From the NCBI GenBank assembly GCA_965230795.1, contig OZ246020.1:1554585-1618584 (forward strand): DNA of 64,000 nucleotides, read 5' to 3'. The notes below the pieces were generated by a model. That model was not told the DNA's origin. It was given only the letters and a program-made list of their open reading frames with translations, and made no database searches. Below, piece after piece: positions 27,826 to 48,793 of the stretch. Position 1 is the first letter of the stretch; the number at the start of each line of letters is the position of its first letter. Position numbers and translations under genes: made by a program. The stretch comes from Oleiphilaceae bacterium. GTDB taxonomy: Bacteria > Pseudomonadota > Gammaproteobacteria > Pseudomonadales > Oleiphilaceae.

Positions 27826-28536
27826 ATGACGGATCAGCAATCGCTTCCAAAATTTAAACAAACCTACGAAAGAGCCGTGGAGAGAAAGGGGGGGAAGCAG
27901 GCGCTGGAAAAGTTATTACGCACGCCCGATTCGCCGGACGACATTCGCGCTATCCCCGAAGATCGCTTTCTGTCCACCATGACCAAGTGTATTAACCAGG
28001 CGGGATTCAGTTGGAAGGTAATCGAGCAGAAGTGGCCAGAGTTCGAAGAAGCCTTTTTTGGTTTTAAGGTGGATACCCTGAGTTTGTTATCGGATGAGCA
28101 GTGGGAAGCCTATACCCAGGATCGGCGTGTTGTACGCAGCTGGCAGAAGATCAAGGCGCTGAAGGAAAATGTTGCCTGGCTCTACGAAGAAAAGACGGCA
28201 AGGGATGGTATCGCCGAGTTGATTGCGGCCTGGCCGGATGAGGATTACGTGGGCTTGCTGGCTTATCTCAAGAAGCATGGTTCACGCCTGGGTGGAAACA
28301 GCGGTCAGCGTTTTCTGCGCTACATGGGCAAGGACAGTTTTGTGTTGTCAAAGGATGTGGTGACCTGTCTGATCGGCTGTGGTCTGGATCTCAAACCTGA
28401 ACCTTCCAGCAAGCGGGAAATGGAGCTGATTCAGGCTACCTTTAACGCCTGGAAGCAGGAGAGTGGCCGCCCCTTTGTTCAGCTTAGTCAGATAGCGGCC
28501 TTTTCCGTTGGGGATAATGTGGTGGGTTTGGTCTAG
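27826..28536 (+). CDS. DNA-3-methyladenine glycosylase I (Tag)-like protein
   Basis: Core CINQAGFSWKVIEQKWPEFEEAFFGFKVDTLS...GGNSGQRFLRYMGKDSFVL...VVTCL resembles the Tag HhH glycosylase. Start set at MTDQQSL. Confidence 0.6.
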   Translation: MTDQQSLPKFKQTYERAVERKGGKQALEKLLRTPDSPDDIRAIPEDRFLSTMTKCINQAGFSWKVIEQKWPEFEEAFFGFKVDTLSLLSDEQWEAYTQDRRVVRSWQKIKALKENVAWLYEEKTARDGIAELIAAWPDEDYVGLLAYLKKHGSRLGGNSGQRFLRYMGKDSFVLSKDVVTCLIGCGLDLKPEPSSKREMELIQATFNAWKQESGRPFVQLSQIAAFSVGDNVVGLV

Positions 28537-28561
28537 TGATAGCCGGACCTGCTCGGTTATT

Positions 28562-28600
28562 CAGATGGCATTGGATTCTGACTACTTCCTGAGCTATCCA
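28562..28600. repeat. left copy of imperfect ~38-bp direct repeat (displaced 3' end of hxlR); left boundary of island 1
   Basis: AGATGGCATTGGATTCtGACtAcTTCCTGAGCT matches 43883-43920 at about 33 of 37 positions. The right copy encodes the C-terminus ...[12 protein letters not shown] of hxlR, whereas this copy has stops. A GC drop and AT-rich tracts begin here. Confidence 0.6.
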
Positions 28601-28890
28601 GGGGTATCAAGTGTCGAGCTGAATAATTCTGTGTGACTTGTATCGGCTTTTTTTGTTTTGATTGCTTTCCTTTCTGTTTTTTTTGCTAACTTAATTGCGC
28701 TGCTCGCAGCTTTCCAGGGATGAATTGCCTGTCTGAAAACACGGATGTACTTGATCTTGATTTGTTATTTTTAGTTTTCATCGTATTCGGTCATTTTTTA
28801 TAGCGGGTGCTCCCCTTTTATATGTCCAGTAGAATGCGCTCATTAAAAATTACATGTAAAATGTTGAAATATTACATGTAATAAAATATA

Positions 28891-29556
28891 GTGGTTTCCA
28901 TGAAAGCAAAATCATCTGCACATTATCAGCGTGAATATCGCAAACGCCTGCGAGAGCAGGGTTTGGTTAAAAAGGAGGTGTGGATACTTCCGGAAAACGC
29001 GAAGCGCCTTTCTGCCTACGAGAAAGTGCTTCGGTCGCGTGTTTCGGGGGAGTCTGCCCAGTTTGATTTTCAATTAGGAGTGAGTGGAATGAGCAATGAT
29101 TCAGATAGTGTCTTGAAAGCCTGGACGACTGAGGGCTTGTTGGATGCCTTGGGTAAGGAGTCCTTGGTTAGCAGTGGCCAGGCAAGGATAGAATTAATTG
29201 ATGGGTTGGAGTCAACGCTGCTGATCGAGATGAAAGAGTATGGAGACCTTCCTGTATTTCTGACGGTTTCCGGTGAGCAGATTATTGTTGAGGCTGTCAT
29301 GTGGTCAGTGGATGAAGTGACCGATGTGGCCGCATTTAACGATGCGATTCTGCGGACTCATAAATTTTTTCCTTTATCCACAATCAGTTTGGACAAGGTC
29401 GGTGAAGAAGGAGATTACTATCACATGTTCGGGGCGTTGAGCTCGACATCTCTGCTCTCCAACGTGGTGTTTGAAATTGAAGTTTTGGCAAGCAACGTAA
29501 TTCAGGCAACAGAAGCTTATAGTGAGTTTTTGTCCGTCCCTGTGGCCGCTAACTGA
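28891..29556 (+). CDS. hypothetical protein, first gene of the PspA-flotillin cluster (possibly DUF2170/YjfI-like)
   Basis: 221 aa, acidic, no TM. It directly precedes a PspA-like gene, as yjfI precedes yjfJ in E. coli. The basic N-terminus (HYQREYRKRLREQGLVKKEV) could bind nucleic acid. Confidence 0.45.
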   Translation: MVSMKAKSSAHYQREYRKRLREQGLVKKEVWILPENAKRLSAYEKVLRSRVSGESAQFDFQLGVSGMSNDSDSVLKAWTTEGLLDALGKESLVSSGQARIELIDGLESTLLIEMKEYGDLPVFLTVSGEQIIVEAVMWSVDEVTDVAAFNDAILRTHKFFPLSTISLDKVGEEGDYYHMFGALSSTSLLSNVVFEIEVLASNVIQATEAYSEFLSVPVAAN

Positions 29557-29574
29557 TAGCGAAGGAGTGATTAA

Positions 29575-30267
29575 ATGAATATATGGGCGAAAATGATGAC
29601 TGCGCTTCGTGGAGGTGTTAACGAGGCGGGTGAGGCTCTGGTGGACAGTCAGGCCCTAAGGATTCTGGACCAGGAAGTTCGTGAGGCTTCGCAGGCTTTA
29701 CAGGATTCCAAGAACAGCTTGGCTGAGATTATGGCTCGTCAAAAGGTCGCCGAAGAGAAGTGTGCGTCCTTTAAAAAACAGATCAAAGAACACGAGGGTT
29801 ATGCTATCAAAGCGCTCGAGAAGGCGGACGAGAGGCTGGCTCGTGAAGTGGCAGAAAAAATTGCTGATTTGGAAAGCCAGTGTAGTCAAGAGCAGGAGTC
29901 TGCTGATGGCTTTGCTGCAAGTGCAGAGAAGATGCGAATGGCCATCAAGCAAACAGAGCGTAACCTTAAGCGTTTGAAGCAACAGGTTGATACGGTCAAA
30001 GCCACTGAGAATGTTCAGCGGGCGCAGGCAGCAGTGGCTGAGCGTCACAGTGGCTCGCACTCAAAAATGAGGACAGCAATGGATTCACTTGATCGGATCA
30101 AAGATAAACAAGCGCTGAAGGCAGCGCAGATGGCTGCGGCGAGTGAGTTGGCAGAACAGACCTCCGACGTCTCGCTGCAGGCGAAACTTGAAGAAGCTGG
30201 CATCGCTGGAAGTGGCAGTAGTGCCGACGATATTCTGGAGCGCTTGAAGAGCAAAGCTTCTAAATAA
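29575..30267 (+). CDS. PspA/IM30-family protein (ESCRT-III superfamily)
   Basis: MNIWAKMMTALRGGVNEAGEALVDSQALRILDQEVREASQALQDSKNSLAEIMARQKVAEEK... An all-helical coiled-coil of 230 aa typical of PspA/YjfJ. Confidence 0.8.
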   Translation: MNIWAKMMTALRGGVNEAGEALVDSQALRILDQEVREASQALQDSKNSLAEIMARQKVAEEKCASFKKQIKEHEGYAIKALEKADERLAREVAEKIADLESQCSQEQESADGFAASAEKMRMAIKQTERNLKRLKQQVDTVKATENVQRAQAAVAERHSGSHSKMRTAMDSLDRIKDKQALKAAQMAAASELAEQTSDVSLQAKLEEAGIAGSGSSADDILERLKSKASK

Positions 30268-30298
30268 AACGTGAAAAATCAATAAGGAGGAGTCGGGA

Positions 30299-30988
30299 AT
30301 GTTTGCGATATTTTTGATGGATGACATGGATCCGTTTTACCAGAACATTGCGTCATTTCCGACTGTAATTTTTACCTTTCTATTATTGCTCGTCGTGCTT
30401 TACTGGTTGGTGGCAGTTTTGGGATTGATAGACATCGATGTGCTCGATTTTGATATACCTGAAGCAGATGGAATGGACATCAATCCAGATACGGGCTTGA
30501 CTAATGCCAACGTGCTGGCCGGGCTCATGCTGCGTTTTGGACTTCATGGTGTTCCGGTAACGATTATTCTGTCGTTCATCGCGTTATTTGGCTGGTTTGT
30601 TTGTTACTACGCAGTTCATTTTCTCATGGGGATCATTCCGGAGGGCTTGCTCGCTTTTCTGGCGGGTATCCCGGTTTTTTTTGCATCCCTTTATGTTTCA
30701 GTAATGGTAACGGCATTAGTAATCAAACCGCTGCGGCCACTTTTCAGCAAGGCGTCTCAAGACACCTTGAAAAGGGTACTGGGTCAGACGGCGATCGTTC
30801 GTACCTCGCGTGTTGACAATAATTTTGGGGAAGCAATTCTCGAGGATGGTGGCGCTGGTTTACTTCTCAAAGTGAGAACGATTGGCGAGACAACTTTCTC
30901 AAGGGGAGACAGGGTTGTGCTGCTTGAATATGACAAAGAAAAAAATACTTACCGTGTAATTTCTGAAGAAGAATTTGCCGGTAGCTAA
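30299..30988 (+). CDS. NfeD-like membrane protein (YqiJ/YuaF-like, flotillin partner)
   Basis: Four or five TM helices, then a C-terminal OB-fold NfeD domain (GQTAIVRTSRVDNNFGEAILEDGGAGLLLKVRTIGETTFSRGDRVVLLEYDKEKNTYRV). It immediately precedes the flotillin gene. Confidence 0.7.
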   Translation: MFAIFLMDDMDPFYQNIASFPTVIFTFLLLLVVLYWLVAVLGLIDIDVLDFDIPEADGMDINPDTGLTNANVLAGLMLRFGLHGVPVTIILSFIALFGWFVCYYAVHFLMGIIPEGLLAFLAGIPVFFASLYVSVMVTALVIKPLRPLFSKASQDTLKRVLGQTAIVRTSRVDNNFGEAILEDGGAGLLLKVRTIGETTFSRGDRVVLLEYDKEKNTYRVISEEEFAGS

Positions 30989-31025
30989 CAATCAAAAAAT
31001 TTAATCTGGTAATGGAGTAACCGTT

Positions 31026-32975
31026 ATGACCGAGAGTTTGCCGTTGTTGATGCCTATTCTATTTGGCGTCGGAATTTTCTTTATCATTTTGATGGGGTTG
31101 GCCGCGCTCTTCAAAGCTTTCTATATCAAGGTAGAGCAGGGCACAGCCCTTATCGTAAACGACATGTCGTCGAAACCGAAAGTGCATTTCACCGGCGCAC
31201 TGGTATATCCGATCATTTACAAAAAAGAGTTGATGCGCATTTCGCTTATCACTCTGGAAATAGATCGTCGAGGCAAAGATGGTTTGATCTGCGCAGACAA
31301 TATGCGAGCGGATATCACTGTCGCATTCTATCTGCGGGTGAATGAAACCGCTGAGGACGTTTTAAAGGTTGCCAAATCAATCGGTTCAAGTCGTGCTTCC
31401 GATAAAGACGCGGTCAATGAGCTTTTTAACGCGAAGTTTTCTGAAGCCTTGAAGTCGGTTGGTAAGCAGGTTGAATTTGTCCAGCTGTTTGAAAACAGGC
31501 AAAAGCTGAGAGATTCAATTGTTGAGTGTATTGGCAACGATCTGAATGGTTATGTTCTTGAGGATGTGGCCATTGATTATCTGGAGCAAACACCCAAGTC
31601 CGCTCTGGATCCTCACAATATTCTTGATGCGGAAGGTATTCGCAAGATTACAGAGCTCACCGCCACACAAAATGTACAAACCAACAATTATGAGCGAGAT
31701 GAAGAACTCGCCATCAAGAAAAAGAACGTTGAGACAGTGGAAGCGATGTTATCACTGGAGCGTCAGCAGGCAGATGCGGAAGCCAAACAGGAGCGTGAGA
31801 TCGCTACGTTGCGTGCGCGCGAAGAAGCTGAAACCAAGAAAGTCCAGGAGGAGCAGCGCAAGATTGCAGAGGAAACCACAATCAAGGTGGAGCAGGAGTT
31901 GCAAGTTGCTGCAGAGAACCAGAAGCGGGAAATCGAAGTTGCGGAACAGAATCGTCTTCGCGCCGTCGCGATTGAAGAAGAAAAAGTGGTTCGTGCTAGA
32001 GATCTGGAAGTCGTCGACAGGGAGCGTCAGGTTGAGCTGGACAAAATCGCCGCTGAAAAAGCCCTGGAGGTTGAAAAGAAAGAAATTGCCAACGTTATCC
32101 GTGAGCGAGTTGCAGTAGACAAAACGGTTGCGGTTGAAGAGGAGCGTATAAAAGAAGTACGTGAAGTCTCAGAGGCAGATCGACAGAAGCAAACGCAGGT
32201 GCTGGCTGCGGAGGCTGCGGCTGAAGAAGATAAAGTCAAGCAAGTAAAAGCCGCAGAGGCAGAGGAAATCGCGGCGAAACACAAAGCAGTCGAGATCACG
32301 ACGATTGCTCAGGCGGAGCTCGAGGAAGCAGCCAAAAAAGCGGATGCGAAGAAGAAATTGGCCGAGGGTACACAGGCAGAAAGGGCCGCGCCAGGCTTGG
32401 CTGAAGCAAAAGTACAGGAAGCGAAAGCGGCTGCCCTGGAGAAAGAAGGACGTGCTGAAGCGGAAGTTATAAGAGCCAAAGGTGATGCAGAGGCGGATGC
32501 CTTGTCTGGTACAGGTAAGGCGCAGGCAGATGTGACCGCAGCACAGGGTGACGCTGAAGCACAAGCGGCCAGACAGTTAGGTCTCGCAAACGCAGAAGTT
32601 ACTCGTGAGCAGTTTAAAGCGGAAGCCGATGGTTTGGTTGAAAAGTTTGAGGCCATGAACACGATGAGTGAGGATGCTCGAGAGCACGAAGAGTACCGAA
32701 TGGGACTGGAGACTGCGCTGAAAGAGGCATTGGCATCTATCGAGGCTGGTAAAGATATCGCTAAAGAAAATGCCGAAGTGCTTGCCGTGGCCCTGCAGAA
32801 GGCGAAGATTGATATCGTTGGTGGTGAAGATCACTTCTTCGATAATTTCGCCAAGTCACTTTCAATTGGTAAGGCGGTAGATGGTCTGGCCGGTAAGAGT
32901 GATACGATTCAGTCACTGATCGATAGGGTGATTAGCGGCAAGAAGCCGACGGTTGTGGACGCAGAAAACGACTAG
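31026..32975 (+). CDS. flotillin-like SPFH/band-7 protein (FloT/YqiK-like) with long EA-rich coiled-coil
   Basis: N-terminal TM hairpin; SPFH domain (QGTALIVNDMSSKPKVHFTGALVYPIIYKKELMRISLITLEIDRRGKDGLICADNMRADITVAFYLRV). Extended flotillin E/A repeats follow (AEAKQEREIATLRAREEAETKK...). Confidence 0.85.
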   Translation: MTESLPLLMPILFGVGIFFIILMGLAALFKAFYIKVEQGTALIVNDMSSKPKVHFTGALVYPIIYKKELMRISLITLEIDRRGKDGLICADNMRADITVAFYLRVNETAEDVLKVAKSIGSSRASDKDAVNELFNAKFSEALKSVGKQVEFVQLFENRQKLRDSIVECIGNDLNGYVLEDVAIDYLEQTPKSALDPHNILDAEGIRKITELTATQNVQTNNYERDEELAIKKKNVETVEAMLSLERQQADAEAKQEREIATLRAREEAETKKVQEEQRKIAEETTIKVEQELQVAAENQKREIEVAEQNRLRAVAIEEEKVVRARDLEVVDRERQVELDKIAAEKALEVEKKEIANVIRERVAVDKTVAVEEERIKEVREVSEADRQKQTQVLAAEAAAEEDKVKQVKAAEAEEIAAKHKAVEITTIAQAELEEAAKKADAKKKLAEGTQAERAAPGLAEAKVQEAKAAALEKEGRAEAEVIRAKGDAEADALSGTGKAQADVTAAQGDAEAQAARQLGLANAEVTREQFKAEADGLVEKFEAMNTMSEDAREHEEYRMGLETALKEALASIEAGKDIAKENAEVLAVALQKAKIDIVGGEDHFFDNFAKSLSIGKAVDGLAGKSDTIQSLIDRVISGKKPTVVDAEND

Positions 32976-33065
32976 GGGTAATCCTCCTGAACTGTCCGAA
33001 TGGCAAGTTGGGTGTCTTTGAGATTCTCGACTTGTTTCCACCATCGTTAAAAAAGGAAAAAGTTC

Positions 33066-36000
33066 ATGGAACAGCATGATCTGTCGGCTGACAATGGAGC
33101 CAATTTAGTTGATCAAGCCGTTGCAGAAGGTGGTGCTTACGAAGTAATCCGCAAGCGCCTGGTTCAACAAAGCAAGCAGTTGTCAGATGTTACCTCTGCG
33201 TTAAATGCCGGTCGCCTGAATGAGTTCGGCAGTTCGGACATGGAAGTGATCGGTCGAGTACGGGTGCGTACCGAGAATAACTGCATCGCCAGGGATATTG
33301 TTCAGGTGGGGCCTCACCTGCTGTTCGGATATAACGTTTTCATCGGATTGAAAAAAGAAACTGCGGTTAGTGATGTATTTGCTCTTTTTGATGTCAAACA
33401 GACGGAGCAGGGTTTTGATCTCGAATCTGTCGACTTGGATAATTCTTTCCTGGCACATCCGGGGTTCGTCAACGACTTTGATGAACTGTATCGCTATTAC
33501 AAAAATACGCGCTTAATCCAGTTGCGGGTCAAGGACGGAAAGCTGCTCGCGGGTTTCCAGATTGGTGAGCGTCTCAGTGATGTGCGGGTTTTTCGCTGGG
33601 CTTTGTCTCCTGATGGCCAGGTTGAATATATTGACAATCGTGGTGAAAGGGATCTTGAGTTACCTTCACCCTACGATTTTGAATGGACGTTTACAACAAG
33701 GGATGACAGCGTTCAGGGGCGCCATCCCCATATTAATGTGCTCGATACGGTTTTTGTTGAGACCACTGATGGCGATTTGACCATTAAGGTAGAAAATAAC
33801 ACGGAAAATGGTCTAGGGATTTATAGCGAGCCTGTGGAAGACAAAACCCAATCTTTGGATGATGCCCAGATTGCCTATGCGAGCGTAGGCGGATTGATAC
33901 TTCTGAAGATAAGACCCTATCGGGAGGAGGCTTGGCGTTATCTTATTTTTAACACTGTCACTCAGGAAGTCGTGCGACAGGATGCGATTGGTGAATCATG
34001 CGTCCAGTTACCTGAGGATCACGGCATCATTTTCCCAGGCGGTTATTATTTGCAGTCGGGTGAGAAGAAGGCGTTTGATGATGGTGTGACGGGGCTTAAA
34101 TTCAAAAGAGTGCTGCGGTCTCCCAACGGCGAGGACGTGTTATACGTCTTTTACCAACCGGAAGAGGGTATGGTCGGTCTTTTCGCCTACAACCTGATCG
34201 AAAAGCAATTACAGAATCCGGTTTATGGACACGGCTATGCCTTGGCAGAGGACGGTAGCCTGGTTATTTTTCAAGCTGAGGAAGAACCAACCAGAGTGCA
34301 TCCCATGCAGATCTGGAAAACCCCGTATGAGAGTGTGGAGCATGCGAGTAAAGCTCCTCCAAGTCAGACGTTTTTCGGGCGTATCGGTAACGCAGAGCTG
34401 GTTCGTGGAATCTCCGATCTCTACAGTATTTGTCGTCTGGTCGACAATCAGTCAGTGTCGCTGCGGCAATACGAAGAGCTAAGCAGAGCGGCGAAAAAAA
34501 TCTTCGATGATCATTACTGGTTGGAGGAGGCTGAGACCAGTAAGATCGCTTCATGTGTCAGGGATATATGTGCTACTTCGGAGCTGGTCATTGATGAGTT
34601 TGAGAAGGTTGAGAGCATTCGGGAACAGTCTGCCAAAACCATGTCTGAAGCTTTTCACGATCAGGAGACGCTGCTCGCCGAAGCGCGGCCCGATAACTGG
34701 GAGCTTGCAGAAGAGTATGTGGATGCGTTGAGCAAAGTGCGTAAACAGCGCGGTCATTTGGTGGGTATCAAATCGCTGCGCTACATCGATGTTGCGCGCA
34801 TCGAGGCGATGGAGAATGAGCTGACAGAGAGGGAGCATGAGCTCACGCAGGCGACGGTTGAGTTTCTGTCTGATGAAAAAGCCCTTAATCCCTATCATGA
34901 AAAAATTGCGGGTCTCCAGGCCGATATTGATAAATCCGAGACCAAGGCTGAGTTGTCCCCGTTAATCGAGGCCGTTGAAAAAACTGCCGCGGGTCTGGAT
35001 CTGCTCTCGGAAATCATGGGGGCACTTAAGGTAGATGATGCGACTGTTCGAACTCGCATCATTGATGCTGTCACTGAGGTTTACGCAAAGCTAAACCAAA
35101 CTAAAGCCGCTGCAACGCGGAAGAGCAAATCTCTTGGTTCGTCGGAAGCGGTTGCCCAGTTTTCTGCTCAGTTCAAACTTTTTTCACAGACCATTGCCAA
35201 TGCACTTGGGGTTTCCAACACTCCTGAAAAGTGCGATGAACAGTTATCGCGCCTGTTAATTCAACTAGAGGAATTTGAAAGTCAATTCAGTGATCATGAC
35301 CAGTTTCTCGCGGACATCATGGAGAAGCGGGAAGAGGTCTATGAATCCTTCGAATCCCATAAACAGCAACTCTTGGATGAGCGACAGCGCAAGGCTCAGA
35401 CCCTGGCCGATGCGGCAAACCGTATTCTGGGCAACATAGAAAAGCGCTCGCTGAAGTTCACCGAGAAAGACGATTTAAATACCTATTTCGCTTCAGATGC
35501 CCTGGTTATCAAAGTGCGCGAGCTGGTTTCTGAATTGCGGAATTTGGACAATGCAGTCAAAGCTGACGATTTGGAATCTCGTTTCAAGGCGATCAAAGAA
35601 CAGTCACTACGATCCCTGCGCGACAAAACAGAGATCTATGAGGCGGGTGGAAATGTCATCAAGTTGGGGCCTAGACATCGCTTTTCCGTGAATACCCAAG
35701 ACCTGGATCTTACCATCATTCCACGTAATGGGATTCTCAATATCCACCTGACCGGTACGGATTATTTTGAAGCTATTCATTATTCAGAACTGATGCAGCT
35801 CAAAGACTATTGGGACATGTCGCTCGAGTCTGAAACATCAGCAGTGTATCGTAGTGAGTACCTGGCATATCGTGTCATAGAGGCAGCACAGAACAACCAG
35901 CAGGGATTGAGCATGCCAGCTTTGATGCAGTCTATCAAAGATGATGAGTTTTCGGGCCTGGTGAAGGACTTTGCTGCCCCGCGCTATAAGGAAGGCTACG

Positions 36001-38468
36001 AAAAAGGCATTCACGATTATGATGCGACCTTGATACTAAAAGCCTTGCTGCCTTCTTTGCATATGGCAGAGCTGTTGAAGTATGACTCGACAAGCAGAGC
36101 CGTGGCACAGGTTTTCTGGTCCCACACGACTCGAGCTATAAAGGATAACAAAGATCGAAGAGTCCATGACCAATCCGCAGATGTCTGGTTGAAAACAGCC
36201 GTGACGTGGCCAGTCCGTGCCCGAGCTGCTATGCAGCTGAATAGCAGTCTGTCCAGTCGTAAAGCTGTAGATCTGTTGGCTCAGGAGATTCTTGATTACC
36301 TCAAGTCGTTTTTAGAAAAACATCCAATCGAAATTCCGAATCATACTATTAGACAGGCTGCTTACTATCTGGTTGACGAGTATGGTCGGGACGACTTTGC
36401 GTTCGTTACAAGTCAGTATGGTTTGGATTTGGTAGAAGAGCTGAAGCGCAGCACGAATGACTTAGCCTGGAATACCTTTGTAGCTTCTCTGCGTGAACTG
36501 GATTCAAACCCTGCCGAAAAGTGGAAAGTCGCTGAGGCTTGGCTGCAGGCGATGGTCGATTCGTTGCCACAAGACAACGAAACTCAGGCTAAGAAAGGTC
36601 GTTATCTTGCCGAGGCGATAGCTCTTCTTGTTGAGCCTGATAGCGTTCCGCGCCGGACCAGCAATGTGGAGCTTGAACTGCTTGTCGAAGGCTTGCTTGG
36701 CGAGCATGCTCGCATATCCAAACAGCGTATGGCTGTCGGAGTTGACGATTTTCTGTCCCGGATGAAACATCATTGTGAGGAAGTAATACCGGCCTATCAG
36801 CACTATCTTCGTACCCGTCAGGAGGTCATCTCAAAAGAGAGAGAGGCTTTGAGGCTGGAAGAGTTCAAAGCGCGGCCACTAAGTTCATTTGTACGCAACC
36901 GCTTGATCAATGAATCCTATCTTCCCTTGATCGGCGATAATCTGGCTAAACAAATGGGAACGGTCGGAGAAAACAAACGATCCGATTTGATGGGTCTGCT
37001 AATGATGATTTCGCCACCAGGTTATGGCAAAACGACATTGATGGAGTATGTCGCCAATCGCCTGGGCTTGATTTTCATGAAGATCAATTGCCCTTCCTTG
37101 GGGCATGATGTGTTGTCTCTGGACCCCCAGCAGGCTCCGAACGCAACGGCAAGACAAGAGCTCGAAAAGCTCAACCTGGCGCTGGAGATGGGAAATAATG
37201 TGATGCTTTATCTGGATGATATTCAGCATACTCATCCAGAATTTCTGCAGAAATTTATCTCCCTGTGTGATGGCACCAGACGTATTGAAGGTGTCTGGAA
37301 AGGGAAAACCAAAACCTATGATATGCGCGGACGCAAGTTCTGTGTGGTAATGGCAGGTAATCCCTACACGGAATCTGGTGAAGCCTTCAAAGTACCCGAC
37401 ATGCTGGCAAACCGGGCAGATATCTACAACCTTGGCGATATTCTAGGCGGCATGGATGAACAGTTTGCGCTCAGTTATGTGGAGAATGCTCTGACTTCAA
37501 ATGCTGTATTGGCGCCTCTTGCAGTCAGGGAAATGGGGGATGTTTACAAACTGATTGATATGGCAAAGGGCAAAGAAATTGCAACCACTGATCTGAGCCA
37601 CCAATACAGCGGTGCTGAAATTAGTGAAATCACAGAAGTTTTGAAAAAGATGTTTGTGATTCAGGACGTGGTTCTCAAGATCAATAAACAATACATAGCA
37701 TCCGCTGCTCAAAACGATAAGTACCGGACTGAACCCAGCTTCAAGTTACAGGGCAGCTATCGCAATATGAACAAAATGAGTGAGAAGCTTTCGGCTGTCA
37801 TGAACGATGCAGAGCTTATGCAGATGATTGAAGATCATTATCTAGGGGAAGCCCAGCTGCTGACTTCAGGCGCAGAAGATAATCTTTTGAAGCTTGCTGA
37901 ATTGCGCGGAAATATGACAGATGAGCAGTCAGCCCGCTGGCAAGAAATCAAACGTGATTTTCTTCGTGATAAAGCTATGGGAGGCGATAGCGCTGATGTG
38001 GGAGCAAAAGTCGTCGCTCAGCTCGTAGACATCGTAAGTGGACTGCGAGATCTCAAGGCTGTCGCGCAAGAGGCGGTTGAACGTGGTGACACAAAAGACG
38101 CGGAACAGGTGAATGAGACTCCGCGGCAGGACATGCTAACCCTGGAGCAGCTTTCTCGAGAAATGGACAAACTGGTTGGTGCTCTAAAGAGCCACCGACC
38201 AAACGTGGAAGTGGTAAACCAGCCGGTACCCGGCATCGACAAGATTCTTTCTGTATTGGCAGATTCCATTGAGCATAGTTTGATGCCCGTTGTTAAGAGC
38301 ATGGACAAGAAGCTCGATATTGATTTGCGAACGCATTACAAGTTGAGAGATGTGTCTGAACAGCTGAGGAATCTTGAGCATGCTATAGGGCTTGAGGATC
38401 ACAAGTCCGGAACAAGTTCTCTGCGCACGGATACGGAAGATTCGGATCTCCAAAGCCGGGAAGAATAG
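33066..38468 (+). CDS. giant (1800 aa) multidomain protein with AAA+ ATPase of the AAA_5 (MoxR/dynein/McrB-like) type near the C-terminal third
   Basis: RBS aaaaggaaaaagttcATG. Walker A MMISPPGYGKTTLMEYV; Walker B VMLYLDDIQHTHPEF; sensor/arginine region FCVVMAGNPYTESGEAFKVPDMLANRADIYNL. The N-terminal ~450 aa are a beta-rich globular region, followed by about 700 aa of helical and coiled-coil sequence. No TM segments. Confidence 0.7.
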   Translation: MEQHDLSADNGANLVDQAVAEGGAYEVIRKRLVQQSKQLSDVTSALNAGRLNEFGSSDMEVIGRVRVRTENNCIARDIVQVGPHLLFGYNVFIGLKKETAVSDVFALFDVKQTEQGFDLESVDLDNSFLAHPGFVNDFDELYRYYKNTRLIQLRVKDGKLLAGFQIGERLSDVRVFRWALSPDGQVEYIDNRGERDLELPSPYDFEWTFTTRDDSVQGRHPHINVLDTVFVETTDGDLTIKVENNTENGLGIYSEPVEDKTQSLDDAQIAYASVGGLILLKIRPYREEAWRYLIFNTVTQEVVRQDAIGESCVQLPEDHGIIFPGGYYLQSGEKKAFDDGVTGLKFKRVLRSPNGEDVLYVFYQPEEGMVGLFAYNLIEKQLQNPVYGHGYALAEDGSLVIFQAEEEPTRVHPMQIWKTPYESVEHASKAPPSQTFFGRIGNAELVRGISDLYSICRLVDNQSVSLRQYEELSRAAKKIFDDHYWLEEAETSKIASCVRDICATSELVIDEFEKVESIREQSAKTMSEAFHDQETLLAEARPDNWELAEEYVDALSKVRKQRGHLVGIKSLRYIDVARIEAMENELTEREHELTQATVEFLSDEKALNPYHEKIAGLQADIDKSETKAELSPLIEAVEKTAAGLDLLSEIMGALKVDDATVRTRIIDAVTEVYAKLNQTKAAATRKSKSLGSSEAVAQFSAQFKLFSQTIANALGVSNTPEKCDEQLSRLLIQLEEFESQFSDHDQFLADIMEKREEVYESFESHKQQLLDERQRKAQTLADAANRILGNIEKRSLKFTEKDDLNTYFASDALVIKVRELVSELRNLDNAVKADDLESRFKAIKEQSLRSLRDKTEIYEAGGNVIKLGPRHRFSVNTQDLDLTIIPRNGILNIHLTGTDYFEAIHYSELMQLKDYWDMSLESETSAVYRSEYLAYRVIEAAQNNQQGLSMPALMQSIKDDEFSGLVKDFAAPRYKEGYEKGIHDYDATLILKALLPSLHMAELLKYDSTSRAVAQVFWSHTTRAIKDNKDRRVHDQSADVWLKTAVTWPVRARAAMQLNSSLSSRKAVDLLAQEILDYLKSFLEKHPIEIPNHTIRQAAYYLVDEYGRDDFAFVTSQYGLDLVEELKRSTNDLAWNTFVASLRELDSNPAEKWKVAEAWLQAMVDSLPQDNETQAKKGRYLAEAIALLVEPDSVPRRTSNVELELLVEGLLGEHARISKQRMAVGVDDFLSRMKHHCEEVIPAYQHYLRTRQEVISKEREALRLEEFKARPLSSFVRNRLINESYLPLIGDNLAKQMGTVGENKRSDLMGLLMMISPPGYGKTTLMEYVANRLGLIFMKINCPSLGHDVLSLDPQQAPNATARQELEKLNLALEMGNNVMLYLDDIQHTHPEFLQKFISLCDGTRRIEGVWKGKTKTYDMRGRKFCVVMAGNPYTESGEAFKVPDMLANRADIYNLGDILGGMDEQFALSYVENALTSNAVLAPLAVREMGDVYKLIDMAKGKEIATTDLSHQYSGAEISEITEVLKKMFVIQDVVLKINKQYIASAAQNDKYRTEPSFKLQGSYRNMNKMSEKLSAVMNDAELMQMIEDHYLGEAQLLTSGAEDNLLKLAELRGNMTDEQSARWQEIKRDFLRDKAMGGDSADVGAKVVAQLVDIVSGLRDLKAVAQEAVERGDTKDAEQVNETPRQDMLTLEQLSREMDKLVGALKSHRPNVEVVNQPVPGIDKILSVLADSIEHSLMPVVKSMDKKLDIDLRTHYKLRDVSEQLRNLEHAIGLEDHKSGTSSLRTDTEDSDLQSREE

Positions 38469-38479
38469 GGCATTCCAGA

Positions 38480-39073
38480 ATGTTCCCCGGTCTTTGGCTC
38501 AAATTCAGGCTGCTCATTTGTTTGTTAGCGGTCATGATTGGGGTTCATGCGGTGAATATGACGCTGGACGGACAGCTTATTCAATACGGGATTATTCCAA
38601 GGTCAGAGGAACATTGGTTTCATGTGTTCATCTCACCTTTCATTCATGTTGATCACGTTCATTTGCTTAACAATTTGTTCGGGCTGGCAATATTCAGCGT
38701 TCTTTGCCTAATGCGTTCGGTAGGACTGTATATCCTCTGCAGTATTTTTGTTATCACCTCAACAGGTTTATTGGTGTGGTTGTTCGCTCGCAGCGCCATT
38801 CACCTTGGTGCTAGTGGTTGGATATTTGGTTTATGGAGTTTTGCCATTGCGATTGCCTGGTTTGATCGGAAATTGATAAACATTGTTTCCAGTTTTCTGG
38901 TGGTCTTTTTATATGGGGGGATGATTTACGGCGTATTGCCTAGTGATCCAAATGTTTCTTTTGAAGCTCATCTTTTTGGCGCTTTGTCAGGTGCGTTGTT
39001 TGCATTTTTTTATTCAGTGTATGTGAAAGCCACGCGGCGTTCTCAATCACGGTCTTCAGTGGCGGGGAACTGA
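38480..39073 (+). CDS. rhomboid-family intramembrane serine protease
   Basis: Six TM helices; catalytic GxSG (IHLGASGWIFGL) in TM4 and His (AHLFGALSGALFAFF) in TM6. Confidence 0.75.
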   Translation: MFPGLWLKFRLLICLLAVMIGVHAVNMTLDGQLIQYGIIPRSEEHWFHVFISPFIHVDHVHLLNNLFGLAIFSVLCLMRSVGLYILCSIFVITSTGLLVWLFARSAIHLGASGWIFGLWSFAIAIAWFDRKLINIVSSFLVVFLYGGMIYGVLPSDPNVSFEAHLFGALSGALFAFFYSVYVKATRRSQSRSSVAGN

Positions 39074-39075
39074 AA

Positions 39076-39924
39076 GTGCTTGCTTGGCTGATTGAAAAGA
39101 TAAAAGACTATTCCTCGTTCACCGATTCCAAGGTGATCATTCAGTGGCAGGCTGGATGGTCTGACTTTTTGAGTGAAACGGTAACGTTTTATCGAACGCT
39201 AGACTCCGAGGACAAGAGAGTGTTCGAGGAACGCGCTCGACTGTTTCTGGAAACCACGACTATTGAAGCTGGACAGTTTGAAGTGAGTGATGAAGATCGC
39301 TTGCTGGTTGCGTCGAGTGCGGTGATTCCTGTTTGGGGTTTTCCGGATTGGCATTACTTTAATGTCAGTAAGGTGTTTCTATTGCCTGCATCGTTTAACG
39401 AGCGTTTCGAATGTGGTCAGCCCGATTCTGTGATCACCGGAATGGTGGGTAGCGGCCCTATGTCGGGAAAGCTTGCTCTGAGCCGTGCTGCTTTGCATCA
39501 GGGTTTCAAGAATGACGAGGACAAGCACAACGTGGGCATTCATGAGTTTGTGCATCTGGTGGACATGGCCGATGGCGATTGCGATGGGTTCCCGGAGCGG
39601 CTTAAGAAATATGCCTACTCGATTCCATGGTTTGAGCTTGTAGAGAAGAAAATTAGCGGGATCGAGACGCGTCGTAGCAATATTCGCGACTATGGTGCTA
39701 CCAACAAAGCAGAGTTTTTGGCCGTCGCATCAGAGTACTTTTTTGAACGGCCCGAAATGATGCAGAAAAAGCATCCTGAGCTTTATCAGGCACTGTCCGA
39801 TTTCTACCAACAGGATGTAATGCGAATTGCTTTGGATATCAGGCCCAGAAAGAAGGCTACTTGTCCATGTGGGAGCGGTAAGAAATATAAACACTGTTGC
39901 ATGAAAAAAATTCAGCGCAAGTAA
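39076..39924 (+). CDS. MtfA-like zinc metallopeptidase (peptidase M90) fused to C-terminal SEC-C zinc-binding motif
   Basis: HExxH (GIHEFVHLVDMADGDCDGFPE) and an MtfA-type C-terminal block (AEFLAVASEYFFERPE...LYQALSDFYQQD). The final residues CPCGSGKKYKHCCMKK are a canonical SEC-C motif. GTG start directly after the rhomboid stop. Confidence 0.8.
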   Translation: MLAWLIEKIKDYSSFTDSKVIIQWQAGWSDFLSETVTFYRTLDSEDKRVFEERARLFLETTTIEAGQFEVSDEDRLLVASSAVIPVWGFPDWHYFNVSKVFLLPASFNERFECGQPDSVITGMVGSGPMSGKLALSRAALHQGFKNDEDKHNVGIHEFVHLVDMADGDCDGFPERLKKYAYSIPWFELVEKKISGIETRRSNIRDYGATNKAEFLAVASEYFFERPEMMQKKHPELYQALSDFYQQDVMRIALDIRPRKKATCPCGSGKKYKHCCMKKIQRK

Positions 39925-39956
39925 TGGTGGCAACAAATACTCTAAAGGAGACGGTG

Positions 39957-40502
39957 ATGAAATGTCCCCAATGCAAAGGTTATGAGCTTGAGCCGAAAGA
40001 ACTGGAGCCAGGTCTGATTGTTGGTGCCTGTTCGAAATGTAATGGTACCTTGGTATCACTGATGAACTATCGCTATTGGGCGGATCAGCAGGGCAGTCAC
40101 GCGTTAGCTGAGCCGCTCGAAAACGATGACGTATCGGAAGCTGAAGATAATGCAAAGGCTCAGGTCTGTCCCAAATGTGCCAAGTTGATGACAAAGTTTC
40201 AGATCGGTGCGGAATCTTCGAACCGCTTGGACCTTTGTACGGGATGTGATGAGGCATGGCTCGATAAGGGTGAATGGAAGTTATTGAAGCAACTGGATCT
40301 GGCAGATAAATTGCCCTCAATTTTTACCGACGCCTGGCAACGTAATATCCGGTTGGCGAGGCAGGAAAAACTGCACAAGCGACGATACGAAAAATTGTTG
40401 GGAACTGATGACTTCACAAAACTGAATGAATTCAAACAATGGCTCGAACTGCATCCTGAAAGAGAACAAATTAAGCAGTATTTGATAACGAAACTGGATT
40501 AG
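39957..40502 (+). CDS. double zinc-ribbon protein
   Basis: CPQCKG...CSKCNG and CPKCAK...CTGCDE pairs, each CxxC-N17-18-CxxC, with a helical C-terminus. Start at the ATG 6 nt after AAGGAG. Confidence 0.55.
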   Translation: MKCPQCKGYELEPKELEPGLIVGACSKCNGTLVSLMNYRYWADQQGSHALAEPLENDDVSEAEDNAKAQVCPKCAKLMTKFQIGAESSNRLDLCTGCDEAWLDKGEWKLLKQLDLADKLPSIFTDAWQRNIRLARQEKLHKRRYEKLLGTDDFTKLNEFKQWLELHPEREQIKQYLITKLD

Positions 40503-40524
40503 CGGATTAAACAGGCAAAGCGAA

Positions 40525-40821
40525 ATGATTGAACTCAGAGAGTGGGTGTCTGCCATCATTTTCTGTACGGGCGTTGCAGGTATCTGTGTGCTTGTTGCCA
40601 ACGAACTGACTTGGTCACTTGTTTGGGCTAGCGTACTGTGCTTTGTATTGGCTTATTTGATCTGGCCAAGCAAAAGGAAAGGGCAGCGGCATGATGACAA
40701 TCGGTTGGCTGACATACTCGAAATACTGATTGAGTTTCCCATGGAGCTTTTTAGTTGGTTGATTCGCTTTTTGGGACGTCTTCTCGGCAGCAAAGGCGAA
40801 GGTATCGATATTGACATTTAA
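40525..40821 (+). CDS. small two-TM membrane protein
   Basis: 98 aa with two hydrophobic helices, between the zinc-ribbon and PLD genes on the same strand. Confidence 0.35.
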   Translation: MIELREWVSAIIFCTGVAGICVLVANELTWSLVWASVLCFVLAYLIWPSKRKGQRHDDNRLADILEILIEFPMELFSWLIRFLGRLLGSKGEGIDIDI

Positions 40822-40838
40822 AAGGATCATTCTGCGTT

Positions 40839-41537
40839 TTGAGTAAACATACGAGAATTGAAGAGTTCCTTTGCGTTTCGTTTGAAGATTTCAAGCTCTC
40901 CCAGGGCGAGAAATATTCGTTGAGAGAGCTTTTGGATAACTTGGGAGACAATGAGCTGTTGTCGTTTGCCCGTAATAAGGCCTTTGATTTATATCGGGAG
41001 TACCATATTGCCGAGTCTGGGGATTCTCTGCAGGGTCTCAACTGGTTGGAGAAAGTTATCAAAACGATCGATAACGTCAGGCTAAACAGCATCGAGTCCA
41101 ACTCTTACGCGTATTTTAGTCCAGGTCCTGAATGCGCCAGGCAGATCATCAACTGCTTGCATGGCGCAAGAGAAACCATTGATATATGCGTGTTTACGAT
41201 CTCCGACAATCATATTACTGACGCGATTCTATCAGCACACGAGACTGGGAAGAGTGTTCGCATCGTGAGTGATAATGATAAAGCAAAAGATAGTGGCTCC
41301 GATATTTACTATCTGGCTGAAAAAGGTGTGCCGGTCCGGCTAGATAAAAGTCCCTACCATATGCATCATAAGTTCGCGATTTTTGACCAAAATCTGCTGA
41401 TCAATGGCAGCTTTAATTGGACTCGAAGTGCCACCATGAAGAACGAAGAAAATATAACCGTTCTGCATGATTCAGGCTTGATCGGCTCTTTTTTATCTTC
41501 CTTTGAGGAATTGTGGTCAGAGTCGAAAGATATATAG
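40839..41537 (+). CDS. phospholipase D-like (single HKD motif, Nuc/endonuclease-type) protein
   Basis: HMHHKFAIFDQNLLINGSFNWTRSA is a canonical HxK(x)4D(x)6GSxN motif present in one copy (dimeric Nuc-like). The listed start is TTG; the real start is uncertain. Confidence 0.7.
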   Translation: MSKHTRIEEFLCVSFEDFKLSQGEKYSLRELLDNLGDNELLSFARNKAFDLYREYHIAESGDSLQGLNWLEKVIKTIDNVRLNSIESNSYAYFSPGPECARQIINCLHGARETIDICVFTISDNHITDAILSAHETGKSVRIVSDNDKAKDSGSDIYYLAEKGVPVRLDKSPYHMHHKFAIFDQNLLINGSFNWTRSATMKNEENITVLHDSGLIGSFLSSFEELWSESKDI

Positions 41538-41561
41538 ATCGACCTGTACAAGGGAGCGTAT

Positions 41562-41831
41562 ATGAAAACCAAATTGACTCTAATTGTTTTATTGGTCGCG
41601 TTACTATCTGGATGCGACAAAATAAACCGGGCTAGCCGCACTATGGATACAGTGCTTGGTGGTGATTTCAAAGTCTACGTGTTGGGGATCGATAAACCAT
41701 TTGTCGTCAACAATGGAAAAGTAACGTCGATACCGGAAAAGGGTTACTACGTTTTTTACCCGGTGATCGATGGTAGGGAACGCTTGGTACAATCCCCCAT
41801 TCAGATTACGACCATTGTAAAAATGGACTAA
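41562..41831 (+). CDS. small lipoprotein
   Basis: Lipobox LLVALLSGCDK; 89 aa. Confidence 0.5.
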   Translation: MKTKLTLIVLLVALLSGCDKINRASRTMDTVLGGDFKVYVLGIDKPFVVNNGKVTSIPEKGYYVFYPVIDGRERLVQSPIQITTIVKMD

Positions 41832-41893
41832 TGTAAGTCACCGGGAACGTGTATGATCTTGTCGTATGTCTTGCTCAAAAGAGAATTCCTAAA

Positions 41894-42484
41894 TTATGGG
41901 TTCATCTCTTTTTGACTGGTTTTATATTGTTCTACCGGAATGATCCGGTACCCGTCTGCAATGTCTTTAATCAATACACCCATGTTGCTAATTTTCTTCA
42001 TGCTGTAAATGTATGCGATCAGAAGCACCAGAGCCAATATGCATAGCCCCGCAATGGAAATGACTATCCACAGTTCAATTTTGGAAACTAGCGGAGATAT
42101 CGTTTCTTCTTTTATCTGAGCTAGTGAGTTTTGCAGTATCTTTGCAGCGGGTTTTTCAGTCTCTCTGATTGTGTTGGGAAGATTGTGTATTGTTGCATTG
42201 AGCTGCTTGCTGATGGCACCAACTTTATCCGCAAGTTCATTGATCAGTAAAAGTTGTTCGGGTGAACGGTCTCCCAGGTCTGCGGATATAGTGTTCAATG
42301 CTGTAGCAAGTTCATTGGTCGCTTTCCTGAGAATCACTCCGGATTCTTTGAGTTCCTTTATCTCGATATGGATCGATACGTATTTAGCTTCATCGTTTCC
42401 TTCGATCATGTTGCCATTACTTTCCGCTATAGAGCTGATGGATACAAAAGTCAGCGCTACCAGCATCAGGTGTTTCTTGATCAT
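41894..42484 (-). CDS. hypothetical exported protein with C-terminal TM anchor
   Basis: Signal peptide, helical periplasmic region, and a C-terminal TM (ELWIVISIAGLCILALVLLIAYIY). Confidence 0.4.
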   Translation of the reverse strand: MIKKHLMLVALTFVSISSIAESNGNMIEGNDEAKYVSIHIEIKELKESGVILRKATNELATALNTISADLGDRSPEQLLLINELADKVGAISKQLNATIHNLPNTIRETEKPAAKILQNSLAQIKEETISPLVSKIELWIVISIAGLCILALVLLIAYIYSMKKISNMGVLIKDIADGYRIIPVEQYKTSQKEMNP

Positions 42485-42501
42485 TGAGAATGCTCCGTTG
42501 T

Positions 42502-43662
42502 TTACGCTGGATTGAAAGAGCGGGAATCATCGACCGTTATTGTGCCTAGTGCTGGCGTGGAAAGGTCTAAACCTTCGCTGATTGAGGCGGCATAAACCGC
42601 TTCGTTCACTTTATAGACTGATCCCATTAAGTGTTTCCGTATTTTGGCCGTAACTTTGGTGTTGGGGATGCGCTCTAGGTAAATCCAAAGCGTATATTCG
42701 AGAGCGAAATCTCCCGCATTGGTCATTGCCCATTCGAAGCCTCGACTGGAGTTAACAGTTATGTCGGGCTTCTCCTTGCTGGCCTTCTGGGCCTGAGTGA
42801 ACATACGATCAACTCGCGAGGTGAATGCCATTAGTTGCTTACTTCTTTCTTCTTTGCTTTGACCTTCAAATGTTGGGTAGCCGATTTTGTATTTGAGAGC
42901 CTGGCGAATACCATCTGTACTGGCAATGCGACTCAAGTTGTCGATCTTATTGCGAATAAACTGGTTGTTACGTATCAGCGTTCTGTGATTGTTTCTTACG
43001 TCATACAGAATGACATAGATAAGTGTCACTTTGCTGATAACGTATTCGTCGGGATGGCCATCAACAAGAACGACATCGCCATCTACCAGCATTTCGGTAT
43101 TGAGAATAATGAGCCCGCTAATGATATCTGGTGCCCAAATGCTGCTGGTAAAGGCGAGAAAAGCGAAGACGATACCGAAAATTCCGGTTGTTTCCAGCAT
43201 GCTGTCAGCACCCCATATTTTTATCAGGGTGTATATCGTCGTAAGTACGATGACCATCAATAGAATGATGTCGACCAGACGACTGCTGTAACTGTCCAAA
43301 TACATGGTAGTGCCATCAAGGCTTTTTTCTATTCCGAAGCGTTTGCGCGACAGGTAGCAGCAAAGGCTATAAGCGAACAAACCGCCATACACTGTCATCA
43401 GGCTGAGGCCCACACGGATGAAGTAATGCTCGTAGCTTTTGTTCAGGCCCAGAAAAGTGAGATCGATGGCGTGGAGAATTAATACCAGAATATTAAGAGC
43501 TCTGAAGATACTGACTTTGGTCTCGTTTTCCTTGTCAGGATCGATGAGTCTCACGATAGGGCGAGCGCAAACCAGCAAGCCAATATTCAGGAGAAATACT
43601 GTGAGGTGCAGCAGCCATTGAGTATGACTCAGAGAAGGCAGAAAATCGGTAAGTGTATCCAA
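42502..43662 (-). CDS. MscS-family mechanosensitive channel
   Basis: N-terminal TM helices plus the MscS pore/beta domain (GIVFAFLAFTSSIWAPDIISGLIILNTEMLVDGDVVLVDGHPDEYVISKVTLIYVILYDVRNNHRTLIRNNQFIRN). Confidence 0.8.
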   Translation of the reverse strand: MDTLTDFLPSLSHTQWLLHLTVFLLNIGLLVCARPIVRLIDPDKENETKVSIFRALNILVLILHAIDLTFLGLNKSYEHYFIRVGLSLMTVYGGLFAYSLCCYLSRKRFGIEKSLDGTTMYLDSYSSRLVDIILLMVIVLTTIYTLIKIWGADSMLETTGIFGIVFAFLAFTSSIWAPDIISGLIILNTEMLVDGDVVLVDGHPDEYVISKVTLIYVILYDVRNNHRTLIRNNQFIRNKIDNLSRIASTDGIRQALKYKIGYPTFEGQSKEERSKQLMAFTSRVDRMFTQAQKASKEKPDITVNSSRGFEWAMTNAGDFALEYTLWIYLERIPNTKVTAKIRKHLMGSVYKVNEAVYAASISEGLDLSTPALGTITVDDSRSFNPA

Positions 43663-43880
43663 AACTTCAAAGCTCCTTGTTTTTGTAAATCACAGTATTC
43701 CTTTTGGAAGCTGGGCGCAGTAGTGAGTAAGGTCCTGCATGTCCCGCTGTCTTTATCATTACCCGTTTACTCTTGCATCGTTGAGACATAGCGCTTTTAA
43801 AAGTCGATAAACAAGGTGATATCGAAGGCTGGTTTTGGTTTATCTAAATTAGACAAAAACGCTAGACCACAAAAATTATC

Positions 43881-44237
43881 TTAGATGGCATTGGATTCCG
43901 ACCATTCCCTGAGCTGCTCCAAAATGTCGAGGGCGGAGCGACCGAAGTCGCTTAATTCGTAGGTGACGGCCACAGGTCGCTCGTTGATGACTTTTCGAAT
44001 CACCATGTTTCTGGCTTCCAGTTCTTTCAGACGCTGATCAATCATTTTCTTGCTGGCGCCGCCCAGCATGCGGGTCAGATCATTGAATCGCACCGGTCCG
44101 TCTTTGAGGTGATAGATGATGGAGCCGGTCCACTTACCGCCGATAATGCGCATACCACGCTCGACCGAGCAGGGTTCCATGCAGGCGTTCAAAACTTTTT
44201 TTCGTCCTTTACTATCTGTTTCTACTCGAGATTTCAA
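43881..44237 (-). CDS. HxlR-family transcriptional regulator
   Basis: [36 protein letters not shown]...; winged-helix HxlR signature. Divergent from mdaB. Confidence 0.85.
43883..43920. repeat. right copy of ~38-bp direct repeat (functional 3' end of hxlR); right boundary of island 1
   Basis: See 28562-28600. It lies inside the last 13 codons of hxlR. Confidence 0.6.
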
Positions 44238-44358: not shown

Positions 44359-44942
44359 TGAGTAACATTCTGATCATCAACGCCCACCATCACTATCCCT
44401 TTTCCGAAGGCAAGCTGAATGCGGCGCTCGTTAATACGGCGCAGGAACTGTTGAAAGCCTCGGGGCACTCGACGCGGTTGGTGACGATTGATGAGGGCTG
44501 GCAAGTGGAACAGGAGCTGGAAAATCATCGCTGGGCGGATGTGGTGCTGTTGCAGACGCCGGTGAACTGGATGGGGGTTCCGTGGACCTTCAAGAAGTAC
44601 ATGGATGAAGTCTATACCGCAGGGATGGATGGGACGCTGTGCCACGGTGATGGCCGTAACTCGGATTCGCCCAAACAAAATTACGGCACCGGTGGCACCT
44701 TGAAGGGTAAGAAGTACATGTTGTCACTGACCTTTAACGCGCCGGAAGAAGCATTTAACGATCCACAGGAATATCTGTTTCAGGGTAAGAGTGTGGATGA
44801 TCTGTTTTTTCCCATGCATATGAATTTCCGCTTTTTCAATATGGAAGCGCTGGAGACTTTCGTCTGCTACGACGTGATGAAAAACGCGGATACGGAAAAC
44901 GACATGAAGCGTTTTGCTGGTCACCTTCAAGCGCACTTTTAA
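44359..44942 (+). CDS. mdaB: MdaB-type NAD(P)H:quinone oxidoreductase (flavodoxin-like fold)
   Basis: [24 protein letters not shown]...[27 protein letters not shown]...[22 protein letters not shown] aligns along its length with E. coli MdaB. The ATG at 44359 has a gagg RBS; the upstream ORF extension is rejected. Confidence 0.85.
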
Positions 44943-45026
44943 TTCCAGAAGGGATAGCGGCTCAGCATCTGTGAGCCGGATTGAGAGCAAGTCTGAATAA
45001 CATTTGAAGACCAACAGGACATTTAG

Positions 45027-46930: not shown

Positions 46931-46984
46931 AAGCCCCGAACGGTATACGAGGCTTATTTTGTTCTTGGTAGCAAGGGGCGGATT
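46931..46984 (-). repeat. att-like repeat copy A: 35-nt tRNA 3'-flank plus 19 nt of tRNA-Met 3' end (CCA-acceptor-T stem)
   Basis: Matches 47171-47224 at 53 of 54 positions, then diverges. Confidence 0.55.
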
Positions 46985-48082: not shown

Positions 48083-48094
48083 AATTAGATGTTT

Positions 48095-48790: not shown

Positions 48791-48793
48791 GGT

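Follow-up and report, generated by a model that had tools for sequence, protein, structure and literature searches.

A bac/Psp-like operon module between direct repeats of the hxlR 3' end in an Oleiphilaceae genome, a probable horizontal insertion

Introduction

Genomic islands can integrate at the 3' ends of genes through a tyrosine recombinase, with attachment site (att) repeats that restore the gene end, as do the islands at tRNA and tmRNA genes, Salmonella genomic island 1 (SGI1) at trmE, mobilizable genomic islands (MGIs) at yicC, and the staphylococcal cassette chromosome SCCmec at rlmH/orfX. Cis-mobilizable elements (CIMEs) and psi-SCC-type remnants are att-flanked segments without a recombination module of their own, and the term CIME implies a cognate element that has an integrase and shares the att. 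To our knowledge, hxlR is not among the known insertion targets. Here, we analyzed a 64,000-nt stretch of contig OZ246020.1 of an Oleiphilaceae bacterium (the window) in which a 15.3-kb block lies between two copies of the 3' end of hxlR, a gene for an HxlR-family regulator. The block holds a self-contained Psp (membrane-stress) module of bacABCDEF-like type, preceded by a conserved, predicted operator, and it was probably acquired horizontally, by Campbell-type insertion across about 40 bp at the extreme 3' end of hxlR. All positions are window coordinates, and L-numbers denote related loci that were fetched for comparison. The source genome is a single 4.27-Mb chromosome, and the collections searched contained no other member of its species.

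The hxlR block resembles the 3'-end islands in that one repeat is the functional gene end and the other a displaced, non-coding copy, in its exact core with diverged arms, in its foreign composition, and in its intact target gene. Unlike those islands, it has no integrase or excisionase and no phage, conjugation, or insertion sequence (IS) genes, its att is without a second instance, and its cargo is one conserved stress operon that has no flanking repeats in the relative reconstructed (L038 merged with L034). With CIMEs it shares att-like direct repeats and the lack of its own recombinase; it differs in that no cognate integrase-bearing element was found, the sole integrase in the window using an unrelated tRNA-Met att. 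The footprint is of a well-known, ordinary type, and what is unusual is the target gene and the absent recombinase.

The cargo has its closest described counterpart in Pseudomonas aeruginosa, where bacABCDEF ('biofilm-associated cluster') is described as a six-gene Psp-like operon, PA3732-PA3727 (PMC2587700; PMC10948618). The module in the window resembles this operon and Escherichia coli yjfIJ in having a DUF2170/YjfI-family BacA first, a PspA/IM30 protein second, and conserved unknown genes thereafter. Its first genes correspond to bacABCDEF, the likeness of bacC-F being drawn from the operon description only. In contrast to the P. aeruginosa operon, the module runs on through an M90 peptidase, a Zn-ribbon protein, and a phospholipase D (PLD)-family protein and is paired with an MscS-like channel; its upstream signal is a twin TTACATGTAA palindrome, whereas a sigma-54 site is proposed for P. 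aeruginosa in the descriptions consulted.

A direct repeat of the hxlR 3' end

A repeat finder and direct reading of the sequence revealed a direct repeat with copies A and B lying 15,320 bp apart, start to start. The repeat and its gene are as follows (GC3, G+C content at third codon positions; asterisks, stop codons):

28557-28595, no strand: repeat copy A, displaced non-coding copy of the hxlR 3' end, with the minus-strand reading LRK*SESNAI*
43876-43915, no strand: repeat copy B, the final 12 codons, the stop codon, and 5 nt downstream of intact hxlR
43881-44237, minus strand: hxlR, HxlR-family regulator of 118 aa, intact (Pfam PF01638 HxlR, E=1.1e-24; GC3 0.61)

Without gaps, 28561-28595 and 43881-43915 were identical at 30 of 35 positions, with an exact core of 16 nt, AGATGGCATTGGATTC. 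Local alignment with one 1-nt gap paired 28557-28595 with 43876-43915 at 34 of 40 columns, reaching TTAT past the stop codon, and four more shared nucleotides (TGGA) are possible after a second indel. An earlier note on this DNA, made from the sequence alone, had placed the repeat here with 33 of 37 matches; the place was right and the count slightly optimistic, although essentially correct. Its statement that copy A no longer gives an open frame agrees with the minus-strand translation above. The match between the copies is codon-aligned to the hxlR stop codon. Of the five ungapped mismatches, the pair closest to the core is synonymous (Ser TCG/TCA; stop TAA/TGA), while the other three produce E>K and W>stop changes. 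The silent differences are a weak hint that the copies may have diverged as the ends of two functional alleles before one of them was stranded.

The similarity was specific to this pair. When a 22-nt version of the repeat was searched with up to three mismatches, copies A and B were the sole matches in the window, and none of 100 dinucleotide-preserving shuffles gave a second match. The hxlR end aligned to the rest of the window with a best local score of 170, compared with a null of 119.6 +/- 5.8 (maximum 137; z of about 8.8). The C-terminus SESNAI occurred, among the 120 best HxlR homologues, only in the window protein (0 of the 119 others), which argues that copies A and B share a specific origin. 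The hxlR 3' ends of L031, L032, and L033 did not match the repeat even with 7 mismatches allowed in 33 positions.

Other identities were considered for the repeat. A longer eroded hxlR pseudogene at copy A was suggested by extra matches in a permissive alignment, which shuffling showed to be without significance; the 98 nt that precede copy A, read in the direction of hxlR, resembled that gene no better than shuffles did (p = 0.14-0.53). A search of IMG/VR for the core as a phage or prophage att gave no matches. The core also appears to be unlike the gammaproteobacterial dif consensus, which was considered because of dif-like (XerCD/IMEX) sites.

The target gene itself is undamaged, with one repeat lying over its 3' end. 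HxlR homologues with 80-90% amino acid identity are present in many marine gammaproteobacteria and have 118 aa, the same length as the protein in the window.

Gene content of the block

The genes between 28891 and 41831 are all on the plus strand and the two final genes on the minus strand. The block comprises the following features (ORF, open reading frame):

28596-28844, no strand: AT-rich lineage-specific spacer, no ORF and no homology to any relative
28845-28890, plus strand: regulatory region of the module, conserved in relatives; a perfect TTACATGTAA palindrome occurs twice (28850 and 28874), along with a sigma-70-like hexamer pair
28891-29556, plus strand: bacA-like gene of the DUF2170/YjfI family (Pfam DUF2170, PF09938, 1e-50; NCBIfam BacA equivalog NF050185, 303.5 bits against a cut-off of 300)
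29575-30267, plus strand: PspA/IM30 family gene, bacB-like (Pfam PspA_IM30, PF04012, 3.6e-48)
30299-32975, plus strand: two conserved genes without a known family, 229 aa and 649 aa (no Pfam or NCBIfam match; 54-85% amino acid identity in all related loci)
33066-38468, plus strand: 1800-aa DUF3686/DUF7902/AAA+ ATPase (Pfam DUF3686, 1.4e-206; DUF7902; AAA)
38480-41537, plus strand: rhomboid protease, M90 peptidase with SEC-C motif, Zn-ribbon protein, 98-aa ORF, and PLD-family (NucT/DrmC-like) protein, in the same order in L034 and L036
41562-41831, plus strand: small putative lipoprotein of 89 aa (ORF; 76.6% nucleotide conservation in L034/L035)
41894-43662, minus strand: two genes that close the module on the right, for a 196-aa signal/transmembrane protein and an MscS-like mechanosensitive channel of 386 aa (channel homologues carry PF00924 or go by the name mechanosensitive ion channel; the pair adjoins the PLD end in L034, L035, and L036)
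43663-43875, no strand: lineage-specific spacer, presumed promoter region of the MscS-like gene, no homology to relatives

The assignment to the bac/Psp-like type follows from a first gene that passed the BacA equivalog cut-off and a PspA/IM30 gene directly next to it. The 649-aa gene sits where the plasmid pQBR103 has an annotated SPFH-domain protein, and an SPFH link may be suggested from this position. The twin palindromes span 28850-28883, 24 bp apart start to start, with a promoter-like site at 28864-28892, and the same pair lies upstream of bacA in 13 related loci (among L039-L055). They are probably the operator of the bac/Psp-like operon for some regulator. Overall, the cargo is not island-like and is instead a conserved chromosomal stress operon. 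A defence-system cargo was also considered, for which PADLOC gave weak domain-level matches only (PLD to DrmC, 2e-9; coiled-coil; SEC-C); the module proteins satisfied no PADLOC system model for known anti-phage defence.

Composition and boundaries of the block

GC3 was 0.57-0.69 in all 22 genes to the left of the repeat and 0.455-0.527 in all 13 module genes. It was 0.62 in the tag-like gene that ends the left flank, 0.61 in hxlR, and 0.54 and 0.56-0.57 in the Flavodoxin_2 and CMD/AhpD-like genes beyond hxlR. The resulting step of about 0.11 (from about 0.62 to about 0.50) coincides with both repeat copies, and the module is therefore unlike the flanking chromosome as represented by tag and hxlR. 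The nearest homologues of the module are on contigs with 0.40-0.46 GC and have a GC3 of 0.31-0.44, whereas those of tag and hxlR are on contigs with 0.51-0.53 GC and have a GC3 of 0.56-0.64. This composition fits a block that was taken from a lower-GC lineage and partly ameliorated.

Comparison with relatives placed the boundaries of the module at the same limits as in the window. L034-L055 keep the gene order, the MscS-like end included, and at the nucleotide level the homology begins some 45 nt before bacA (about 28845) and runs to the start of the MscS-like gene (about 43643). The flanks of the module differ in essentially every relative, and neither hxlR nor tag lies beside it in any of them. 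The best homologue of the MscS-like protein was 82% identical and that of Tag 83% identical at the amino acid level; exact-protein look-ups of the window PspA and Tag returned no record. On the target side, hxlR-flavodoxin_2-CMD is a conserved unit in L031, L033, and L058, where the genes downstream of hxlR vary and the module is absent.

A related YjfI-PspA-...-SPFH-DUF3686 module is located on the megaplasmid pQBR103, which indicates that such modules can travel on mobile replicons. On pQBR103 (L061, NC_009444.1, 84437-97641; Pseudomonas fluorescens SBW25), the genes are YjfI, PspA, rhomboid, DUF2491, DUF350, DUF1190, a glutathionylspermidine-synthase-like gene, an SPFH protein, and a DUF3686 ATPase; that module is a hybrid of E. 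coli yjfI-M-type and bac-type gene sets. In L034, the closest module-bearing relative, an Integrase_1/Phage_int_SAM_1 gene pair (3643-4897 of that locus) was observed about 5 kb beyond the MscS-like end.

Explanations of the insertion

The observations are probably best explained by a horizontally acquired module that was inserted at the hxlR 3' end. The donor would have been a lower-GC relative within or near Oleiphilaceae, from which the whole module was transferred. Entry would have taken one reciprocal crossover, with a circular DNA molecule recombining into the chromosome within the approximately 40-bp sequence, of which the incoming DNA would have borne its own near-identical copy; because that copy supplied the gene end, hxlR would have been kept intact (copy B). 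The other recombinant copy (A) would then have been stranded 15.3 kb away beside tag and would later have gained stop codons. We read such a crossover from the topology: one junction has the intact gene end and the other the displaced copy, the core is perfect with arms that have diverged, and the edges are sharp. Recombinase-mediated, att-type integration is the most likely route, and the catalyst may have been a site-specific tyrosine-type recombinase that is now lost or encoded elsewhere. The event appears to be an insertion, not another rearrangement, and to be old; the block now resides in the chromosome as an immobile part of it and is not demonstrably mobile.

Several findings weigh against this explanation. 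Between the copies, Pfam, NCBIfam, PADLOC, and the repeat finder identified no integrase or recombinase, transposase, phage, or conjugation gene and no terminal inverted repeats. The integrase scan covered called ORFs of at least 89 aa, the small ORFs at 41562-41831 and 40525-40821 being without an informative match or outside the scan. The 386-aa gene beside hxlR had been suspected from its position to be a divergent integrase, and its sequence and homologues identified it as the MscS-like channel; the earlier note's statement that no integrase lies between the repeats is thus confirmed for the called ORFs. In three other genomes, the DNA downstream of hxlR was inspected and showed no integrase. 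The 16-nt core was found nowhere else (57 related loci and IMG/VR), so no other element with the same att was seen. L038 and L034, merged through a 5,446-nt overlap with one mismatch into the module plus 10 kb on each side, form the only relative reconstructed with both flanks, and no direct repeat longer than 14 nt surrounds the module there. Low-GC island material also lies to the right of hxlR (46-59 kb), which places hxlR in a generally plastic region. The closest metagenome-assembled genome has tag (L001) and hxlR (L031) on different contigs with other neighbours, and the five closest tag contexts (L001-L004 and L027; 82-83% amino acid identity or less) have other neighbours as well, the convergent gene after tag in L027 not being hxlR. 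An empty tag-hxlR site was not found by Tag protein search, genome-contig scan, or context look-ups, because no relative in the collections searched exceeded 83% amino acid identity; these relatives are too distant to serve as a test, and the missing site therefore does not speak against an insertion.

The main rival, which we regard as unlikely, is that linear DNA from a relative carrying the module beside hxlR recombined through a homologous anchor in hxlR/flavodoxin, with an illegitimate far join about 40 nt inside the resident hxlR. Copy A would then be the stub of the resident gene and copy B donor-derived, with neither recombinase nor att involved. Such an event needs no integrase, and none is present; two functional alleles that had already diverged would account for the silent differences near the core, an illegitimate junction would account for the sharp inner edge of copy A, and the compositional evidence of foreign origin holds for this scenario just as well. 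However, the MscS-like end lies beside hxlR in none of the sampled relatives, the GC3 of hxlR, flavodoxin, and CMD is host-like rather than module-like, and a perfect 16-nt core with diverged arms is more like an att-type crossover region. It is distinctly improbable that no insertion took place and that copy A is all that deletion left of a second hxlR (from segmental duplication or a paralogue), with the module always resident. The stop codons and indel in copy A do resemble a decaying pseudogene, and the region is prone to rearrangement. This history nevertheless takes two events or more, including a deletion that happened to end at the module boundary, and finds no residual hxlR similarity past about 40 nt to support it; it leaves unexplained both the occurrence of the nearest module relatives in low-GC genomes and the GC3 step at exactly the two copies, and we consider it less likely because of this step and the boundary coincidence.

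The earlier note had also proposed mobilization in trans, for example by the integrase at 53157. An intact tyrosine recombinase does lie 9 kb from the hxlR block in the same window (53157-54281; Pfam Phage_integrase, 2.2e-18), but it adjoins its own tRNA-Met att, which aligned to either copy of the hxlR repeat with scores of 6-8 (shuffle median 6, 90th percentile 8), not above chance. The proposal is therefore unsupported, and an integrase-less island moved by this particular enzyme is very improbable. Chance similarity, or a common regulatory or terminator motif, has nothing in its favour beyond the shortness of the repeat and is excluded by the shuffles, the alignment score, the codon alignment to the stop, and the absence of the core from the 57 loci and IMG/VR; together with the unique SESNAI terminus, this upholds the earlier view of a specific duplication of this hxlR 3' end. 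That view had further held that an element integrated at the hxlR 3' end exactly as tRNA-targeting islands do. An inserted block is supported by the GC3 step, the module boundaries, and the relatives that have the hxlR unit alone, but the exact equivalence to those islands is an inference, given that there is no recombinase, no second att, and no repeat in L038 merged with L034. Finally, the module could be a discrete integrase-less cassette of a CIME-like family that uses the hxlR 3' end as its attachment site with a recombinase encoded elsewhere, which we think rather unlikely.

If the favoured insertion is correct, a complete Psp-like envelope-stress operon can move as a unit with its own operator between marine gammaproteobacteria and can land without inactivating its target gene, and hxlR joins the protein-coding genes whose 3' end can host an insertion. 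If instead the integrase-less cassette were real, it would represent a CIME-like island family with a previously unrecognized protein-gene target. No new mechanism is revealed, and the value lies mainly in genome annotation and in the evolutionary history of the bac/Psp module.

Neighbouring genes and other repeats in the window

The genes directly beyond the two repeat copies, and a second island to the right of hxlR, are as follows:

27826-28536, plus strand: tag-like gene of the 3-methyladenine DNA glycosylase I family, last gene of the high-GC left flank (Pfam Adenine_glyco, E=7.7e-10; homologues so named; GC3 0.62)
44359-45583, plus strand: Flavodoxin_2 (NAD(P)H quinone reductase-like) gene and frameshifted CMD/AhpD-like gene (Pfam; synteny with L031, L033, and L058)
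47271-54305, no strand: 7.08-kb island bracketed by 49-nt tRNA-Met fragments (flanking regions 46931-47270 and 54274-54354)

TauE-tag synteny is kept in L001, L002, and L027, and the homology of tag with relatives stops at about 28526. In the distant alphaproteobacteria Roseibium/Labrenzia (L010, L014, L015, L017, L020, and L022), an HxlR-family gene that is 35-37% identical lies 2-6 kb downstream of a tag homologue on the opposite strand; since HxlR paralogues are so common, this proximity is probably a coincidence. The CMD/AhpD-like gene (45027-45583) has a frameshift at about 45279, just past a CxxC-like motif (CHYCVPGH), when compared with the intact 185-aa orthologue in L031, and is either a pseudogene or the product of a sequencing error.

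The integrase ends 25 nt from a 49-nt fragment of a tRNA-Met 3' half (54306-54354, minus strand), which is repeated with 98% identity at 47222-47270 on the same strand. A third, shorter fragment (46966-46984, minus strand) has the same downstream hairpin, and neither Rfam nor ARAGORN gave a match anywhere in the 64-kb window, which has no intact tRNA. Because the tRNA-Met repeats adjoin and bracket it, the integrase belongs to its own 7.08-kb island, which also encodes an IS3-type transposase (52034-52852), an HTH protein, a YiaAB protein, and a second, divergent PspA paralogue (48095-48790). GC3 in this island is about 0.37-0.57, mostly about 0.47-0.54, which is below the left flank and overlaps the module. 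Like the hxlR block, it is an insertion with direct repeats on both sides that correspond to the 3' part of a gene; it differs in its own integrase beside the att, its near-identical (98%) 49-nt repeats, and its IS3-type transposase, and it serves as an internal example of a canonical island.

Two further repeats were observed in this region. An 87-nt inverted repeat with 91% complementarity (52811-52897 and 55138-55224) spans the integrase and the tRNA-Met fragment. One of its arms overlaps the IS3-type transposase at its end, which points to a truncated second copy of the IS in inverted orientation. The other is a perfect 42-nt direct repeat with a hairpin (GGACCCTTCGGTCC; 56124-56165 and 58262-58303) on either side of two very low-GC genes (GC3 0.32-0.34); it may be a terminator that was duplicated, or it may mark the ends of a further small insertion.

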